This document shows, piece by piece, positions 757-9,856 of a stretch of DNA of 64,000 bases (position 1 is its first letter; each line of letters starts with the position of its first letter). The translations under genes were made by a program, and so were the position numbers. Below the pieces are notes generated by a model, which saw nothing but the letters and a program-made list of their open reading frames with translations, had not been told where the DNA came from and made no database searches. The DNA is from Tenuifilaceae bacterium. GTDB lineage: Bacteria > Bacteroidota > Bacteroidia > Bacteroidales > Tenuifilaceae. The stretch spans positions 5,852 to 69,851 of the forward strand of contig JAVEYY010000021.1 of NCBI GenBank assembly GCA_034003245.1. The letters are read 5' to 3'.

Positions 757-1596
757 ATGGTTATTACTGATCAAGACCTTCAATACTTCGTAACCACGCT
801 AAAAAATTCGTCGAAGTACGATTTTAGCGAGTATTCCGATAAATCGTTGAAACGCCGATTGCAGAAAGTACTCACCGACTTTAACCTCGACATGCAGGGG
901 CTGATCCTAGCCCTAAAAAACAAGCCCGATTTTACCGAGAAGATTGTTAGGGAGATTACCGTTAACACCACCGAACTTTTCCGCGACCCACCTGTTTGGC
1001 ATACACTCCGCTCCCGCATTTTGCCCCGATTTAAAAACAACAAAACAATAAATATTTGGCACGCCGGATGCTCAACAGGACAGGAGGTGTACTCCATGTT
1101 GATTCTTCTCAACGAGATGGAGATGCTGGAAAAAACCAAGATATTTGCTTCCGACCTTAACACAGATGTTCTGGATGCCGCAAAAAAGGGGGAGTACAAG
1201 TATCGGTTCAACATTGCTTACCTCGACAACTTCGACAAGGTAATTAAGCAGAACCCATTGAACTACGAGGAGTTTAACGATGTCCCTTACGAGAAGTACT
1301 TCGATATCGACAAGGCTAGGGACACAATTACCATGAAGAAGCATCTCACTGAAAGGCCAATATTTAGGAAACACGATCTGGTGAAGGACGGAAACCTGTT
1401 CTTTGCAAAGTTCGATCTTATTCTTTGCCGCAATGTGATTATATACTTCAACTATTCGCTGCAGAACAAGGTTTTCGATTTGTTCCATTCAAATCTCTAC
1501 AACAAGGGAATCCTTTTGCTGGGTATGCACGAAACGATTCTGGGGCCTTGGGCAAACAAGTTCGAGAAGATGGGACAGGCTTATATAAAAAAATGA
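757..1596 (+). CDS. cheR: CheR-type protein-glutamate O-methyltransferase (stand-alone)
   Basis: 279 aa. CheR N-terminal helical region, TELFRDPPVW, SAM-binding IWHAGCSTGQEVYS and the DLILCRNVIIYF motif are all present. Confidence 0.85.
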   Translation: MVITDQDLQYFVTTLKNSSKYDFSEYSDKSLKRRLQKVLTDFNLDMQGLILALKNKPDFTEKIVREITVNTTELFRDPPVWHTLRSRILPRFKNNKTINIWHAGCSTGQEVYSMLILLNEMEMLEKTKIFASDLNTDVLDAAKKGEYKYRFNIAYLDNFDKVIKQNPLNYEEFNDVPYEKYFDIDKARDTITMKKHLTERPIFRKHDLVKDGNLFFAKFDLILCRNVIIYFNYSLQNKVFDLFHSNLYNKGILLLGMHETILGPWANKFEKMGQAYIKK

Positions 1597-1622
1597 GATA
1601 TTTATATCTAGAATATTAAAAT

Positions 1623-4001
1623 ATGAGAGTTCTAAATAAGTTAAGCATTAATCATAGAATCCAACTAGCTGTTGGGCTGATATTGCTTTTCCTATATGCC
1701 GTATCGGGTTACGTAGTATACTCATTCTCGGCAAGTAGAATGGAGAAACAGATCCATCGTCAGATGGAGGTTTACCTCGGCAACCTCTCTGGATTAATCA
1801 ACGAGGTGGAGAAACAGGGTGCCCCTGGATTTGACCCCAGAGACCACCAAACACTTAAGCCATACTTCAGCAAGCCTGCCTTTTTTAGCACCGATTACCC
1901 ATTTATGGCCGATGCTGCTGGACACTATACTATCCATCTTTACAAAGAAGGGCAACGAATCCCAAGGTATCTGCTGAACCAACTCTTTGCGCAATCGGAA
2001 AAGAGAGGATTCATCGAGTTTACCGAGAAATCAAACAATCAGGGTCAAAAGATCAAACTATTCTACCAAAAAGTTGATATTTACAACTCCTTTATTGGCA
2101 TACCTGTTAACCTAAATGAGGCAGCAAAAGATCTGAACAGCAATCGGTTTGTTCTTATCCTTCTTGTGATTGTCGGCTCACTCTTTTTTATTTTTGTAAT
2201 TAACCTCACCCTTAAACCAACCCTTAAAACCATCGCGCTAATTGACGATGTGGTTAGCCAAATGGCCAAGGGCGAAGTCTCCTCAACCATCACATACCAA
2301 TCGAGCGATGAGGTTGGAAAAATCGTAAAATCGCTTAACGTTCTTATCGAAGGGCTGTCGAAAACAGCCGCCTTTGCTACCGAAATTGGTCACAATAACC
2401 TCGACACTGAATTTTCGACCCTTGGGCCAAACGACAAGTTGGGCAACGCCCTTCTCGACTTACGCAAAAACTTTAAACAATCGAAAGAGGAAGAGGACAA
2501 ACGGCAGGAGGAGGACAAGCAGCGCAACTGGACCAATTCGGGCCTAGCAACATTTGCCGATATTCTACGCCAGAATAACAATAATCTTCAACGTTTATCC
2601 GATACAGTAATACAAAATCTACTGAATTACCTCAACGCTAACCAGGGTGGGTTATTTATGCTGAACGAGGATGATGATACCAACCCTCAGCTTGAGTTGA
2701 TTTCTGCTTTTGCATACAACAGGAAAAAATTTATGCAGAAAACCATTCTCCTTGGCGAGGGATTGGTTGGAAACTGCGTAATTGAAAAGCAAACAATCTA
2801 CCTAAAAGAAATTCCAGATAATTACTTGCAGATAACCTCGGGACTTGGCGACGCCACACCAAGAGCACTGCTTATTACCCCGCTTAAACTTGAAGATAAA
2901 GTTTTTGGAGTAATCGAGATAGCCTCGTTTAATGAGTTTAAGCCTTTTGAGATTGATTTTATCGAAAAAATCGGTGAGAGCATTGCTTCAACACTATCGG
3001 CAGTAAAAAATAGCATTCGAACCTCACAACTCCTTGAACAATCGCAACAACAACGCGAGGAGATGGCCGCACAGGAAGAGGAGATGCGTCAGAACATGGA
3101 GGAGATGCAGGCAACTCAGGAGGAGATGGCTCGCAAAACCATTGAAATGGAGGGCATGTCGTCGGCTATTAACGAGGCCATGCTTTTTGCTGAACTTACT
3201 GAGAATGGCCACTTCCTAAATATCAACGCCAATATGCTCAACACCTTGGGCTATACCCGAGGGGAATTGGAGGATAAAACAATCCACAATTTCATCTACC
3301 CAACCGATGTGACGAGTTTTAACGACCTATGGCGATTGGTTAAAGGAGGCGAAACCCACAACGGAACAATCAAATGGATTAACCGAAACAACGAAGAGCT
3401 ATACTTGCTTAGCAGTATATCGCCAGCTTTTGATGAGGTTGGAGATATCTTCAAGATTTTCTTCCTTGGACAGGATATTACAGCATCGAAACAGATTGAA
3501 ATAAAAGCACAGGAGCAAGCCGAGGAGATTGAGCAAAACCTAATGGAGCTACAAGCAGAGCAAGAACTGGCGCAACAGCGTGACGAGGAGATTGCTGCCC
3601 TGCTAAAAGCGCTTGACGGAACGTGCCTAGTAACAGAGTTCGATCCTAGCGGAAAAATTTTGTATATCAACGCCAAAAACGAAGAGGTTCTGGGCAGTAA
3701 AAGAAATGAAATTGAGGGGAAAGTTCTCCACGAAATTGATTTTTCGGCAAAGAATAATCCACAAGCATTCAACGCCATGTGGTCTTCGCTTCTCGAAGGA
3801 GTATCACAACAGCGAGAGTTCTCACTAAAAGTAAAGAATCGCGAAGTTTGGATTTCGGAGCATTTTACTCCAATATTTGGCAAGGATGGTGAGGTTGTAA
3901 AAATCATCAACATTGGCATAGATATAAGCAGCGGCAAGGAAACTGAGATAAGGCTTCAGAAGCAAGTAGAGGAGTTAACCAAGCTGCTAAGGCAAAAATA
4001 G
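1623..4001 (+). CDS. Membrane sensor protein: 2 TM + extracytoplasmic domain + HAMP + GAF + Glu-rich coiled coil + 2 PAS; no recognisable output domain
   Basis: 792 aa. Hydrophobic segments [21 protein letters not shown] and [20 protein letters not shown]. HAMP-like [21 protein letters not shown]...[12 protein letters not shown]. GAF signature [25 protein letters not shown]...[8 protein letters not shown]. PAS-like blocks after residues ~520 and ~650. No HATPase, GGDEF, REC or MCP signalling domain seen. Confidence 0.75.
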   Translation: [792 protein letters not shown]

Positions 4002-4022
4002 TAGGCAAAACAATTATTACTG

Positions 4023-8847: not shown

Positions 8848-8885
8848 ATTGTTTATTATCGGTAAATTATTTAATTTTACGGGCT

Positions 8886-9461
8886 ATGGATAAAAGAAAT
8901 GTTAAAGGTTTTCTGGAGTTTGTCTACGACTTCTACAAGTCGATGAAAGCTCATGAAATTACCCTCGTCTACGAGGGTGAAATAACCCACCAGATCACCA
9001 AGGCGTTTACCTCACTCACCGAGTCCAACATGGCAAAGGAGGAGGAGTCGAACTCGGTGCAGAAAAAGGTATTCCACGTAATGGTTGAGTGCCTGCAAAA
9101 CATTAGTAAGCACGCCGACAGCTTTGGCTCCGACGACTTCCTATTTGCAGGTAGGGGAATATTTATGGTTAGTAAGGGTGAGATTGAGTACCATGTTACC
9201 ACGGGTAACGTGATTGAAAACTCAAAAATCGTTGAGCTTTCAAAAATCCTCGATCACATCAACACCCTCGACAGGGATGGCCTAAAGGAACTCTACAAAA
9301 CGCAAATGCGCGAAGGTAGGCTTTCCGAAAAAGGTGGTGCTGGACTAGGGTTTATCGACATTGCGCGAAAAACTGGTCGCAAGCTCGATTACCACTTCCT
9401 CCCCATCGACGAGGAGACACACTTTTTTATTCTAACCTCAACCATTTCCCGAAACGAGTAA
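8886..9461 (+). CDS. SiaB-like small protein kinase (HATPase/anti-sigma-kinase-like fold)
   Basis: 191 aa. ECLQNISKHA and GGAGLGFIDIARKTGRKL blocks are typical of SiaB-family kinases. It sits between a PP2C phosphatase and a DUF1987 gene. Confidence 0.65.
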   Translation: MDKRNVKGFLEFVYDFYKSMKAHEITLVYEGEITHQITKAFTSLTESNMAKEEESNSVQKKVFHVMVECLQNISKHADSFGSDDFLFAGRGIFMVSKGEIEYHVTTGNVIENSKIVELSKILDHINTLDRDGLKELYKTQMREGRLSEKGGAGLGFIDIARKTGRKLDYHFLPIDEETHFFILTSTISRNE

Positions 9462-9472
9462 ATAATTGAGCT

Positions 9473-9856
9473 ATGGAAACCATAAAGATTCTGGGTACCG
9501 ACGATACCCCCACTGTAATTCTTGATGCTGATAACGACATCTTTGAGATTTCCGGCCGCTCGCTGCCCGAGGATGTTACCGCATTCTACGATCCAATTCT
9601 GAATTGGCTCGACGAGTACGCTGCTGGCCCAAATGCAAAAACCATTTTCACTTTCAAGCTGGTGTACTTCAACACCGCCAGCTCCAAGTTGCTTCTTGAT
9701 ATACTGATGAAGCTGGAGGAGATGCACGAGGATGGCAAAGAGATTCTGGTGAAATGGTACTACCCCGAGGACGACGAGGATATGCAGGAAGCCGGAGAGG
9801 AGTATGCCGATATCGTAGATGTTCCTTTCGAACAGGTTAGCTACACTCTCAACTAA
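9473..9856 (+). CDS. SiaC-like DUF1987 regulatory phosphoprotein
   Basis: 127 aa. GTDDTPTVILD...ISGRSLPEDVTAFYDPILNWLDEY...FKLVYFNTASSKLLLDILMKLEE is the DUF1987/SiaC pattern, including the conserved Thr (Thr68). Confidence 0.75.
   Translation: METIKILGTDDTPTVILDADNDIFEISGRSLPEDVTAFYDPILNWLDEYAAGPNAKTIFTFKLVYFNTASSKLLLDILMKLEEMHEDGKEILVKWYYPEDDEDMQEAGEEYADIVDVPFEQVSYTLN

Follow-up and report, generated by a model that had tools for sequence, protein, structure and literature searches.

The methylation sites of MCPs are EE, EQ, QE, or QQ pairs at a spacing of seven (PMC2535941), and EExxA[S/T] is the methylation consensus of E. coli (PMC1079850). The placement of CheR and CheB next to non-MCP sensors has already been seen as a genomic pattern (PMC5108060). 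Proteins of the DUF1987 family have been proposed to modulate the product of an adjacent gene (PMC8457831), and Rv1747 is an FHA-bearing exporter under Ser/Thr phosphorylation control (PMC3138270). In the Tenuifilaceae locus described here, part of an operon conserved in Bacteroidota, glutamate methylation enzymes of the chemotaxis type are coupled, apparently in the absence of any chemoreceptor, to GAF/PAS sensors, a phosphorylation switch, and an exporter. No published description of such a system was found in the literature, but CheR and CheB beside non-MCP sensors have, as a genomic pattern, the precedent cited above and another in CheB/CheR fusion proteins. We lean, with modest confidence, toward reading the operon as a self-contained, MCP-independent sensory pathway that includes methylation of sensor linkers and control of the exporter. 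If true, methylation-based sensory adaptation would operate outside chemoreceptors.

Extent and conservation of the gene cluster

Within the window, by which we mean the whole analyzed stretch of 64,000 nucleotides, the conserved unit comprises 11 genes on the + strand (757-14433) with terminator-like hairpins at both ends. The upstream hairpin (390..409, + strand; 8-bp stem with 5 GC pairs and a T-run) follows a polysaccharide synthesis gene whose ORF ends at 362. The downstream hairpin (14461..14481, + strand; 9-bp stem with 5 GC pairs and a T-run) lies 28 nt past the stop of the last gene, U146, and a tRNA-Asn gene comes next on the opposite strand. The first-pass annotation had described eight co-directional, tightly spaced ORFs, and all were found again on the + strand at exactly the same coordinates, with gaps of 26, 21, 3, 12, 1, 38, and 11 nt and with the expected domains in Pfam and NCBIfam. 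The unit does not stop after these eight, however, but continues to 14433 with three more genes: one for a TerB/FHA-like ABCG-type exporter, one for a lipoprotein, and one for a small secreted protein. The reported lack of CheA, CheW, CheY, an MCP signalling domain, and GGDEF was borne out, as a search of the window's 54 ORFs of 90 aa or longer detected neither MCPsignal nor any of the other four. HMM analysis found no MCPsignal in any cluster protein, including the 792- and 870-aa sensors, and a search for an MCP hairpin, though a weak test, was negative both in the window and across some 0.5 Mb of flanking sequence.

A genome survey seeded with the second CheR protein, CheR2, yielded 80 loci (CheR2 identity 43-94%), and gene order was kept in 80/80 as far as the contigs extend. 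A metagenome survey was seeded with SiaC and is less biased than the CheR2-seeded set; here CheR, CheB, and the PP2C sensor occurred together in 31/33 loci, SiaB in 65/68, and the ABC gene in 45/46. The arrangement is very unlikely to reflect chance, given that order is kept throughout the genome loci and the linkage recurs in the SiaC-seeded loci. The system was found in Bacteroidales and in Cytophagales, where Fulvivirga maritima carries it, and the linkage holds across these two orders. Locus L088 is a variant of the system, and at L168 CheR is present and CheB absent.

CheR and CheB proteins

CheR1 (279 aa; 757..1596, + strand) matched Pfam CheR at 133 bits along with CheR_N and aligns with B. 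subtilis CheR (5FTW). Its GCSTGQE motif, Asp133, and CRNV motif are invariant in 71/71 orthologs, and the protein is probably an active, canonical protein-glutamate methyltransferase. CheB (186 aa; 4863..5423, + strand) starts with TTG, followed one codon later by ATG, and contains only the CheB_methylest domain (Pfam, 165 bits) without REC. The triad Ser11-His38-Asp131 aligns to 3SFT and 1CHD and is invariant in 77/77 orthologs; judged from its sequence, CheB is a catalytically intact methylesterase/deamidase domain lacking a receiver.

Alignment of catalytic residues, which upheld CheR1 and CheB, did not uphold CheR2 (4023..4859, + strand), a degenerate paralog with a Pfam CheR match of 95 bits and a weak CheR_N. 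Its original description as a divergent CheR is correct as to family, but as a working enzyme it is most likely dead. The SAM-ribose-binding Asp is replaced by Ser, Val, Tyr, or Thr in 78/78 orthologs, the Gly of motif I varies, and FRNQ stands in place of CRNV. The overall fold is kept, as is a basic KRR helix with invariant K35, R36, and R37, and CheR2 is probably a non-catalytic pseudoenzyme. In all two-CheR loci, the degenerate copy is the one adjoining CheB and the first CheR is intact; an intact CheR is also found in 32/33 single-CheR loci.

Sensors and their EE-heptad linkers

The core sensor phosphatase, P870 (6235..8847, + strand), is composed of a TM hairpin, GAF, an EE-heptad linker, two PAS domains, and a SiaA-like SpoIIE/PP2C domain. 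The C-terminal part matches that of SiaA in NCBIfam (1e-51), and at least 95% of 72 orthologs retain the PP2C motifs GDF, DCTGHG, DGMD, SDG, and DD. S792 (1623..4001, + strand) has two TM segments, a periplasmic loop, GAF, an EE-heptad linker, and two PAS domains and, as first described, lacks an output domain; the HAMP domain also assigned to it is weak and sub-threshold (20.5 bits versus a 25-bit cutoff). S792 is paralogous to the sensor part of P870 (residues 243-787 versus 98-621; 28%, E 2e-52). Because it is missing from 30 of 75 loci, in which CheR1 and CheR2 are adjacent, S792 is a lineage-specific accessory and not part of the core. G265 (5436..6233, + strand), with a TM hairpin, coiled coil, and GAF, is always present yet fast-evolving (31-80% identity) and is possibly a sensor partner. 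The three GAF domains are paralogs, as had been proposed, with G265 matching S792 at 38% (E 8e-15) and P870 at 32% (E 2.5e-11).

Four heptad-phased acidic pairs occupy the same position, between GAF and PAS, in both S792 (residues 470-505; 3030..3137, + strand) and P870 (residues 316-352, LLLEAQQMTQELKENEEELRQNAEEMRATHEELEKSN; 7180..7290, + strand). The S792 linker, a candidate methyl-accepting helix with four EE pairs, is nearly invariant in 40 orthologs and outranks every other 36-aa window of the protein in conservation (0.94 versus 0.52; 0/757 windows higher). In P870, the linker is among the best-conserved 8% of windows, and its pairs read [Q/E]E, E[E/Q], EE, and [E/D]E across 72 orthologs. 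Each linker carries an exact consensus hexamer: EEMQAT in S792 (3099..3116, + strand; candidate methyl-Glu E494), matched by 41/41 orthologs, and EEMRAT in P870 (7249..7266, + strand; predicted methyl-Glu E340), matched by 65/73. These are the only EExxA[S/T] sites in the 19,507-aa window proteome, where 0.59 are expected, and they lie 25-34 times as densely as such sites do across 128 kaa of flanking ORFs. Like MCP sites, the linker pairs combine heptad spacing with E/Q exchange, seen at P870 pairs (Q37/E25 and E58/Q14), as EQ in Fulvivirga, and as QE..EQ in L088. The central EE of P870 is invariant in 53/53 Cytophagales-type linkers. A protein at L154 unites a CheB-CheR fusion, EELQAT/EELISS/EELQST heptads, and PAS_10 in one polypeptide, and this joining of the enzymes to an EE-heptad-into-PAS element points, in the manner of a Rosetta stone, to such elements.

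Several features count against methylation. The P870 site reads EEMKIT in 8/73 orthologs. E/Q exchange is limited: the central pair hardly ever departs from EE, and linkers of the Cytophagales type have EV or EI as the pair preceding RQN. The linkers match neither of the longer MCP consensus sequences, [ASTG]2-xx-[EQ]2-xx-[ASTG]2 and A/S-xx-EE-x-A/S/T-A-A/S/T. Ordinary PAS histidine kinases without adjacent CheR/CheB also have EE/NEEL heptad helices with the EExxA(S/T) hexamer, and the EE motif may thus be a general signalling-helix feature.

The switch, the exporter, and competing explanations

The SiaB-family (DUF6272) protein kinase (8886..9461, + strand) matched NCBIfam NF038262 (SiaB_fam_kinase) at 174.5 bits against an 85-bit cutoff and is 79-99% identical among orthologs. 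The SiaC-family (DUF1987) phosphoprotein (9473..9856, + strand; Pfam PF09345, 144 bits) has at Thr68 (nt 9674-9676) a residue that, in an alignment to PDB 6KKO, corresponds to the P. aeruginosa SiaC phospho-acceptor and is invariant in 62/62 orthologs. Pfam and NCBIfam therefore agree with the initial naming of a PP2C phosphatase, a SiaB-like kinase, and a SiaC-like protein, and on these matches P870, SiaB, and SiaC constitute a SiaABC-type phosphatase/kinase/phosphoprotein set.

The probable output of the switch, overlooked in the first-pass annotation together with two envelope proteins, is co-conserved directly downstream. The ABC gene (9908..12997, + strand) is separated from SiaC by 12-54 nt across the loci, with no terminator between, and is present in 65/65 genome loci extending that far. 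It encodes an ABCG-type half-transporter with an NBD, an ABC-2 TMD, and a C-terminal extension that adds one more TM, the core being ABCG-like (ABCG1 7FDV match, 83-612). The AF2 model of the N-terminal region (pLDDT 86) holds two domains. Residues 8-141 (9929..10330, + strand) form a TerB-like helical bundle (Pfam TerB, 38-40 bits; Foldseek match to PG1108, 2H5N). Residues 158-235 (10379..10612, + strand) form a beta-sandwich (pLDDT ~90-96) for which FHA domains head the Foldseek list (probability up to 1.0, E 0.02-0.4, TM 0.44-0.57); S190 and N207-G208 are conserved, and by residue conservation the canonical GR and SxxH residues are absent. The exporter resembles Rv1747 in bearing an FHA-like domain, here beside a Thr-phosphoprotein. 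Next come the lipoprotein U307 (13051..13974, + strand; signal peptide and Cys22), present in 57/57 loci extending that far, and U146 (13993..14433, + strand), a small secreted protein co-conserved with U307 and without a family match.

In the pathway we propose, CheR1 would methylate, and CheB demethylate or deamidate, glutamates of the EE pairs in the GAF-to-PAS coiled-coil helix, primarily E340 and E494 and then the next pair, seven residues on. Charge neutralization would alter how the dimeric signalling helix packs and thereby reset the PP2C activity that a particular GAF/PAS input elicits, resulting in adaptation as in chemoreceptors; since CheB has no receiver domain, feedback would have to come from substrate conformation. 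CheR2, which would have lost SAM binding but kept its basic substrate-binding helix, would probably bind the same linker helix without catalysis or serve as a scaffold there. S792 and G265 may pair as accessory sensors with P870 via paralogous GAF/linker/PAS parts. The PP2C/SiaB balance would set the phospho-state of SiaC, and the TerB/FHA-like module of the exporter may in turn recognize SiaC and so switch the export of an envelope or lipid-like substrate. The earlier idea that CheR and CheB act on the GAF-PAS sensors to tune the PP2C/kinase/SiaC switch thus gains partial support from the candidate sites, the L154 fusion, and the two-order linkage.

CheR1 and CheB might instead be ordinary adaptation enzymes for MCP/CheA/CheW arrays encoded elsewhere, with the operon reflecting co-regulation only and the EE helix a plain coiled coil. 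Their sequences are canonical, true chemotaxis classes, F3 for one, include receiver-less CheBs (PMC9239204), and CheA/CheW have been reported in some Bacteroidales MAGs (PMC6275135). We nonetheless consider this quite improbable given the strict co-linearity of CheR/CheB with the sensors and switch in over 110 judged loci from two orders, SiaC-seeded ones included, the lack of MCPsignal in the cluster proteins and, in a weak test, of MCP hairpins in the window and about 0.5 Mb of flanks, the exact location of the hexamer in the co-encoded sensors, and the L154 polypeptide, which has its own EE helix. Methylation inside the cluster of another substrate, be it TerB or another exporter part, SiaC, or G265, seems rather improbable as well. 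It would fit a CheR1 relative that carries a fused TerB domain (P0494; Pfam TerB, 27 bits), given that the exporter begins with TerB, and the conserved acidic C-terminal half of SiaC (EDDEDMQEAGEEY). That fusion is a single example, however, and the CheB-CheR fusion favors EE-heptad/PAS elements. EExxA[S/T] was found in 0 of 80 G265 ORFs, 0 of 67 SiaB ORFs, and 1 of 64 ABC ORFs, in a survey of ORFs of 150 aa or longer, a size above that of the 127-aa SiaC orthologs; the window's own SiaC lacks the hexamer. The acidic run of G265 is unconserved (7/80), and no conserved C-terminal tether was seen.

There is some chance, though we think it unlikely, that the switch does not control the exporter and that the exporter genes are mere neighbors, the SiaC target being an unlinked enzyme, sigma-factor regulator, or other protein. 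The TerB-ABC+304+144 unit does occur without neighboring signalling genes (L085-L087), solitary SiaC-like genes exist (L148, L151, L155), and the residues that canonically bind pThr are missing from the FHA-like domain. Control of the exporter is favored by the position of the ABC gene directly after SiaC in 45/46 and 65/65 loci, with the short, terminator-free gaps described above, by the FHA-like fold adjoining a Thr-phosphoprotein, and by the published proposal that DUF1987 proteins regulate an adjacent gene product.

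Gene content, extent and conservation of the cluster

Eight open reading frames, all on the + strand and separated by 26, 21, 3, 12, 1, 38, and 11 nt, were located where the first-pass annotation had placed them, and profile searches bore out the domains it had assigned to their products. CheR1 (757-1596) has CheR_N and CheR domains. S792 (1623-4001) is a sensor with two transmembrane segments, a GAF and two PAS domains, and no output domain; the HAMP domain also proposed for it was present only below threshold, at 20.5 bits against a cutoff of 25 bits. Then follow CheR2 (4023-4859), a second CheR (95 bits); CheB (4863-5423), the catalytic domain alone with no receiver; and G265 (5436-6233), a transmembrane hairpin with a GAF domain. 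P870 (6235-8847) is a sensor phosphatase having a transmembrane region, GAF, two PAS, and a SpoIIE/PP2C domain. The last two genes encode a SiaB-like protein (8886-9461; DUF6272/SiaB-family kinase, NF038262, 174.5 bits against an 85-bit cutoff) and a SiaC-like protein (9473-9856; SiaC/DUF1987, PF09345, 144 bits). The three GAF domains are indeed paralogous, and residues 243-787 of S792 align with residues 98-621 of P870 (28%, E 2e-52).

The eight genes had been described as the whole unit, but three more continue on the same strand: a 1029-residue ABC protein with TerB, ABC_tran, and ABC2_membrane domains (9908-12997), the 307-residue lipoprotein U307 (13051-13974), and the 146-residue secreted protein U146 (13993-14433). 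The best two + strand terminator-like hairpins of the first 15.5 kb are at 390-409 and 14461-14481, and therefore bracket a unit of 11 genes from 757 to 14433. An Rfam scan for riboswitches or other RNA elements returned two tRNAs only. The gene for tRNA-Asn (GTT; 14546-14622, - strand) is directly beyond the downstream hairpin and has a terminator-like hairpin of its own (14546-14522, - strand), while that for tRNA-Leu (CAA) is at 29242-29326 on the + strand. A sigma-70 promoter scan, whose model does not cover Bacteroidota promoters, gave 27 sites where 29.1 were expected. The TerB domain raised the idea of a defence system, which was dropped when PADLOC gave generic ABC-ATPase matches only.

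A scan seeded with an alignment of CheR2, using one genome per GTDB species, yielded 80 loci. All were from Bacteroidales (Tenuifilaceae and related MAGs, with the cultured Perlabentimonas gracilis), with 43-94% identity in CheR2. As far as the contigs reach, the order CheR1-(S792)-CheR2-CheB-G265-P870-SiaB-SiaC-ABC-U307-U146 was found in 80/80. S792 is missing from 30 loci of a deeper clade, in which about 21 nt separate CheR1 from CheR2, and is thus an accessory gene. Because this survey was seeded on a CheR, a second was seeded on SiaC and run on metagenomes with a query led by a distant SiaC sequence. CheR, CheB, and a PP2C sensor were all present in 31 of the 33 loci having at least 8.5 kb upstream of SiaC, SiaB in 65 of the 68 with at least 0.7 kb upstream, and the ABC gene in 45 of the 46 with at least 3.5 kb downstream. 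The recovered loci number more than 150 in total, with cultured carriers among them, and the linkage of CheR/CheB with SpoIIE, SiaB, and DUF1987 proteins on which the first-pass annotation had built was kept in nearly all loci that could be judged. The chromosome of Fulvivirga maritima (Cytophagales) carries the same system, with one CheR only and with a sensor-phosphatase that is longer (1214 residues) and includes a periplasmic domain and HAMP.

Several loci depart from this arrangement. L168 has CheR, sensors, and switch proteins without CheB, while in L148, L151, and L155 a SiaC-like gene is found with no SiaB, CheR/CheB, or ABC gene nearby; that of L155 adjoins genes for a T9SS-sorted Ig-like protein and a 3-keto-disaccharide hydrolase. 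Three loci (L088, L156, and L157) have an extra hybrid histidine kinase and a full-length REC-CheB upstream. In L085-L087 the TerB-ABC gene, with genes for proteins of about 304 and 144 residues, forms a unit lacking the signalling genes, and so behaves as a separable effector module; in L086 a lone SiaC gene is 10 kb from it. An LPG_synthase_TM gene directly precedes this unit in L085-L087; in L001 and L002 the same gene (2810-3956) is found four genes before CheR1, suggesting that insertion or deletion affected the signalling block as a unit. In F. maritima (L084; CP089980) the ABC gene seemed split in two, an arrangement ruled out by a frameshift at about 11170-11210 within the LSGGQ signature. 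The annotated products of 402 and 629 residues are therefore halves of one gene, and the frameshift reflects either a pseudogene or a sequencing error.

A candidate methyl-accepting helix in the sensors

Between the GAF and first PAS domains, both S792 (residues 479-506) and P870 (residues 325-352; QELKENE-EELRQNA-EEMRATH-EELEKSN) have four consecutive heptads, each opening with an acidic pair, which form a candidate methyl-accepting helix. Methylation sites of Escherichia coli receptors are EE, EQ, QE, or QQ pairs spaced by seven residues on one face of a helix (PMC2535941). The hexamer EExxA[S/T], the methylation consensus taken from PMC1079850 and PMC2535941, is matched exactly by EEMRAT in P870 (339-344) and EEMQAT in S792 (493-498). 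These are its only two occurrences in the window proteome of 19,507 residues, against 0.59 expected from composition, and they single out E340 of P870 and E494 of S792 as the predicted sites of modification.

The hexamer is also concentrated in these proteins across the surveyed loci. At a constant position, its density per 1000 residues was 1.32 in S792 orthologs and 0.95 in P870 orthologs, compared to 0.039 in non-cluster ORFs (128,403 residues) and about zero across all other cluster proteins. The consensus was kept in 41/41 S792 orthologs and 65/73 P870 orthologs, and its central EE was invariant in all 53 Cytophagales-type linkers. Among 36-residue windows of S792, the linker ranks first in conservation, with a mean column identity of 0.94 against 0.52 and none of 757 windows higher; the P870 linker is within the top 8% of windows.

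Glu/Gln exchange is typical of MCP sites, since CheB deamidates Gln. At the linker pairs such exchange was present but limited: in P870 orthologs Q and E occur at position 325 in 37 and 25 sequences, E and Q at position 331 in 67 and 5, and E and Q at position 333 in 58 and 14, while the Fulvivirga sensor S814 has EQ at two pairs and the linker of L088 reads QEMIAT...QEQL. The strict MCP consensus patterns [ASTG]2xx[EQ]2xx[ASTG]2 and [AS]xx[EQ][EQ]x[AST]A[AST] gave no match as regular expressions, leaving the classical hexamer as the one form that fits.

The failure of these longer patterns counts against a methylation site, as do two further observations. Cytophagales-type linkers have EV or EI as the pair that precedes RQN. 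In addition, PAS-PAS-HisKA-HATPase kinases found about 8 kb upstream of the cluster in L015 (383-2683) and L029 (1233-3521) have an ERT signalling helix and, after it, NEELSATNEELSAT, and neither CheR nor CheB is encoded directly beside them. That segment has the consensus hexamer twice, in heptad phase, and the motif is thus not unique to the cluster. Judged from the sequences, CheR and CheB may act on these kinases as well; alternatively, the motif may belong to such helices in general. In an S792-like protein of L091 the RQN-EE..T motif recurs downstream (ALRQNLEELEVTQEQL), indicating that some sensors bear two such helices. G265 was also considered as substrate or tether and rejected, its acidic run being conserved in only 7/80. 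A conserved C-terminal pentapeptide was absent from every sensor.

The CheR and CheB proteins, their fusions, and the search for chemosensory partners

Of the three enzymes taken to form a methylation module, CheR1 and CheB proved intact in their catalytic residues on alignment, but CheR2 lacks the Asp that contacts the SAM ribose. Ser11, His38, and Asp131 of CheB align with the triad of solved CheB domains and were invariant in 77/77 orthologs. The protein (186 residues; 184-203 in orthologs) is the catalytic domain only, with no receiver for CheA to phosphorylate. A homolog search with CheB brought up orthologs alone, all at 79% identity or more, and hence no distant contexts, and an exact-sequence lookup of the TTG-start CheB gave no match. 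In CheR1, the SAM-binding motifs GCSTGQE, Asp133 (the counterpart of the Asp in ATDID of Bacillus subtilis CheR, 5FTW), and CRNV were intact in 71/71 orthologs.

Class I methyltransferases bind the SAM ribose by an acidic residue that ends strand 2. At the position equivalent to Asp133, orthologs of CheR2 have Ser (28), Val (22), Tyr (10), Thr (8), and other residues, with Asp in 0/78; furthermore, the Gly of motif I is variable (E/A/S/N) and CRNV has become FRNQ. With the ribose-binding residue gone, CheR2 is most likely unable to bind SAM. Many of its residues are nonetheless invariant, including K35, R36, and R37 of an N-terminal basic helix, and this constraint suggests a non-catalytic role. 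Among the SiaC-seeded loci, the CheR was canonical in 32 of 33 with a single copy, and in every locus with two the first was canonical and the one adjacent to CheB degenerate. The Fulvivirga CheR is 43% identical to CheR1 and 41% to CheR2, which are 33% identical to each other; this near-equidistance fits a duplication and subsequent decay of one copy. An assignment of one CheR to each sensor was ruled out, as both CheRs are kept in loci without S792 and a single CheR can occur with it.

A metagenome contig supplied the strongest indirect argument as to what these enzymes act on. About 630 nt downstream of the cluster, L154 encodes a CheB-CheR fusion of 1249 residues (15858-19607) with CheB_methylest at 42-217 and CheR_N and CheR at 241-497. 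A coiled coil follows in which EELQAT, EELISS, and EELQST begin in heptad phase at 703, 710, and 717; this leads into PAS_10 (754-859; 112 bits) and further PAS, and there is no kinase or other output domain. An EE-heptad helix running into PAS is therefore common to the cluster sensors and to this single polypeptide that also holds the enzymes, which argues that helices of this kind, and not MCPs, would be the substrate of this CheR/CheB lineage. A PAS_10-like domain (30 bits; cutoff 22.1 bits) also follows the linker in the S-type sensor of Fulvivirga. The PAS domains of the window sensors had no PAS_10 match, and their CheB and CheR are encoded separately.

Searching a library clustered at 50% with CheR1 gave mostly stand-alone CheRs. 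The fusions recovered were of the types CheR-CheB, X-CheB-CheR, CheR-REC, and, once, CheR-TerB, and the EE helix was found in none of them. P0461, P0466, and P0475 are the reverse-order CheR-CheB fusions and P0428 is CheR-REC, while P0478 and P0509 are CheB-CheR fusions of about 550-570 residues whose N-terminal 100 or so residues form an unannotated domain. The single CheR with a C-terminal TerB is P0494 (27 bits against a 24.4-bit cutoff); as the cluster exporter starts with TerB, a contact between CheR and TerB is conceivable.

The alternative that the enzymes serve an ordinary chemoreceptor array was addressed by searching for its components. As the first-pass annotation had noticed, CheA, CheW, CheY, the MCP signalling domain, and GGDEF are absent from the window (Pfam scan of 54 ORFs of at least 90 residues). 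PF00015 matched neither the cluster proteins nor these ORFs, and its nearest signal was a sub-threshold coiled-coil match of 13.7 bits to the Fulvivirga linker. A tblastn search of all loci with the MCP hairpin core was negative while its positive control worked, a result given little weight because the non-cluster flanking DNA searched amounts to only some 0.5 Mb. Neither CheA nor CheW was found within the 64-kb window and the retrieved loci, the DNA that this search covered, and both have been reported for some Bacteroidales MAGs (PMC6275135).

The SiaABC-type switch, the exporter, and a proposed mechanism

In Pseudomonas aeruginosa SiaC, we take the Thr of LNTSS to be the residue phosphorylated by SiaB. 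Thr68 of the cluster SiaC aligns with this Thr (PDB 6KKO) and was invariant in 62/62 orthologs. The motifs of the SiaB-like kinase are intact, as are the PP2C motifs of P870. The match of P870 to the SiaA model NF038263 covers only its C-terminal 265 residues (1e-51; 176 bits against an equivalog cutoff of 700 bits), and its N-terminal sensor architecture is unlike that of SiaA. No SiaD-type GGDEF protein that might serve as the target of SiaC was found in the window or in the locus neighbourhoods inspected.

The gene directly after SiaC encodes the exporter, whose core resembles ABCG half-transporters (TIGR00955; residues 83-612 of ABCG1, 7FDV). An AlphaFold2 model of residues 1-261 made with 72 homologs (pLDDT 86, pTM 0.80) places a beta domain (158-235) behind a TerB-like bundle of helices. 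When the beta domain was searched against the PDB with Foldseek, nearly all hits were FHA domains (Rad53 FHA1, Mek1, EssC, CEP170, KIF1A, and Bdellovibrio DgcB), with probabilities up to 1.0 and target TM scores of 0.44-0.57 but E values of only 0.02-0.4; the helical part matched PG1108. The protein is thus predicted to have an FHA fold N-terminal to the nucleotide-binding and ABC-2 membrane domains. Ser190 and Asn207-Gly208 of the FHA-like domain are conserved, while the canonical GR and the His of SxxH are absent and K172, R197, R215, K226, K229, and K231 are invariant instead. Pfam gave no family for the middle domain of the ABC protein, U307, or U146, and a single-sequence AlphaFold2 model of U307 was unusable (pLDDT 44).

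An FHA-type module encoded directly after a Thr-phosphoprotein suggests that the exporter may read SiaC. This is supported by the proposal that DUF1987 proteins modulate the product of an adjacent gene (PMC8457831) and by the precedent of Rv1747, an FHA-bearing exporter under the control of Ser/Thr phosphorylation (PMC3138270).

Taken together, these results led us to a mechanism in which CheR1 would methylate the linker glutamates and CheB would demethylate or deamidate them. Neutralisation of charge would alter the packing of the dimeric GAF-to-PAS helix and reset PP2C activity, the balance of PP2C and SiaB would set the level of phosphorylated SiaC, and SiaC would gate the exporter via TerB/FHA. 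CheR2 would bind the same helix non-catalytically, and S792 and G265 would tune sensing by pairing with P870. Since CheB lacks a receiver, and hence kinase feedback, adaptation would depend on conformation-dependent access to the substrate. As a whole, the reading in which methylation of a GAF-PAS-PP2C helix adapts a Ser/Thr switch gating a TerB/FHA-like exporter, with a pseudo-CheR as non-catalytic reader, is a tentative one, to which we give slightly less than even credence.

The locus works like a chemosensory adaptation module on a SiaABC-type switch and, having no local MCP, CheA, or CheW, no CheB receiver, and no SiaD, is a full member of neither family. SiaABCD of P. aeruginosa comprises the PP2C SiaA, the kinase SiaB, the phosphoprotein SiaC, and the diguanylate cyclase SiaD. 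The cluster shares with it a membrane sensor-PP2C, a SiaB-family kinase, and a DUF1987/SiaC protein with Thr68, in the same order. Unlike SiaABCD, it has a TerB/FHA-like ABCG exporter downstream in place of GGDEF/SiaD, a GAF-PAS-PAS sensor with an EE-heptad helix that resembles SiaA in its C-terminal part alone, and an added CheR/CheB pair; to our knowledge, c-di-GMP signalling is largely lacking in Bacteroidota. Wsp is an alternative-function chemosensory pathway with the MCP WspA, the CheA-like WspE, the CheR WspC, the CheB WspF, and the output WspR. As in such pathways, CheR/CheB-type modification of Glu would tune a non-motility output, and the hexamer and heptad spacing match those of MCPs. 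The cluster differs in that no MCP domain, CheA, CheW, or CheY was found, CheB is receiver-less, the presumed substrate is the GAF-to-PAS linker of a PP2C sensor, and output is by Ser/Thr phosphorylation rather than a His-Asp relay.

Rv1747 of Mycobacterium tuberculosis is an FHA-FHA-NBD-ABC-2 exporter regulated by the kinase PknF. Both it and the cluster protein are ABC-2/ABCG-like exporters with an N-terminal FHA-type module and an adjacent Ser/Thr phosphorylation system. The cluster exporter, however, has one FHA-like domain, without the canonical pThr residues and preceded by TerB, its kinase is SiaB-type rather than Hanks-type, and phosphorylation presumably falls on a separate small protein. 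Proteins like the L154 fusion are widely annotated as [quoted passage not shown]; such sensor proteins are, as far as we know, uncharacterised, and literature searches found no characterisation of them. They share with the cluster CheB, CheR, and an EE-heptad EExx[A/S][S/T] coiled coil leading into PAS, whereas the cluster enzymes are separate proteins and the helix is in separate membrane sensors with GAF and PP2C domains. CheR/CheB genes adjoining hybrid histidine kinases have been noted, including in Bacteroidota (MacGregor 2016, PMC5108060). The cluster likewise has CheR/CheB beside non-MCP sensors, and L088, L156, and L157 add a hybrid histidine kinase and REC-CheB. In contrast to the cluster, that pattern is one of gene neighbourhood with two-component outputs, and its description included neither a substrate site nor a partner switch or exporter.

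With CheR/CheB beside non-MCP sensors and CheB-CheR fusions already noticed or annotated, what is new here is a variant combining known kinds: a conserved and abundant system in which CheR/CheB would serve another receiver and another output. Full-text literature searches found no description of the cluster, a non-MCP CheR substrate, or a link between SiaBC and an ABC protein. The only established CheR/CheB substrates we know of are chemoreceptors within CheA/CheW arrays. If the proposed reading is true, the linkers would be the first class of methyl-accepting substrate beyond MCPs, and methylation-based sensory adaptation would reach outside chemotaxis. The orphan CheR/CheB and CheB-CheR fusion genes of non-flagellated Bacteroidota would be explained and given a function, and an FHA/TerB-gated ABCG exporter would be a new output for SiaBC-type switches.

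The remainder of the window holds housekeeping genes and three TonB-receptor/DUF4249 pairs. In the translation row rplM, rpsI, rpsB, tsf, pyrH, and frr, otherwise housekeeping, a gene between tsf and pyrH (19359-22202, + strand) encodes a 947-residue protein with TPR and CHAT (caspase-like) domains. On the - strand (37760-51858) are three tandem genes for TonB-dependent-receptor-like proteins (CarbopepD_reg_2 and Plug; 798, 826, and 784 residues), each followed by a DUF4249 gene (286, 312, and 322 residues), with a small OMP beta-barrel gene and unannotated ORFs interspersed among the pairs. This array looks like a triplicated outer-membrane uptake module.
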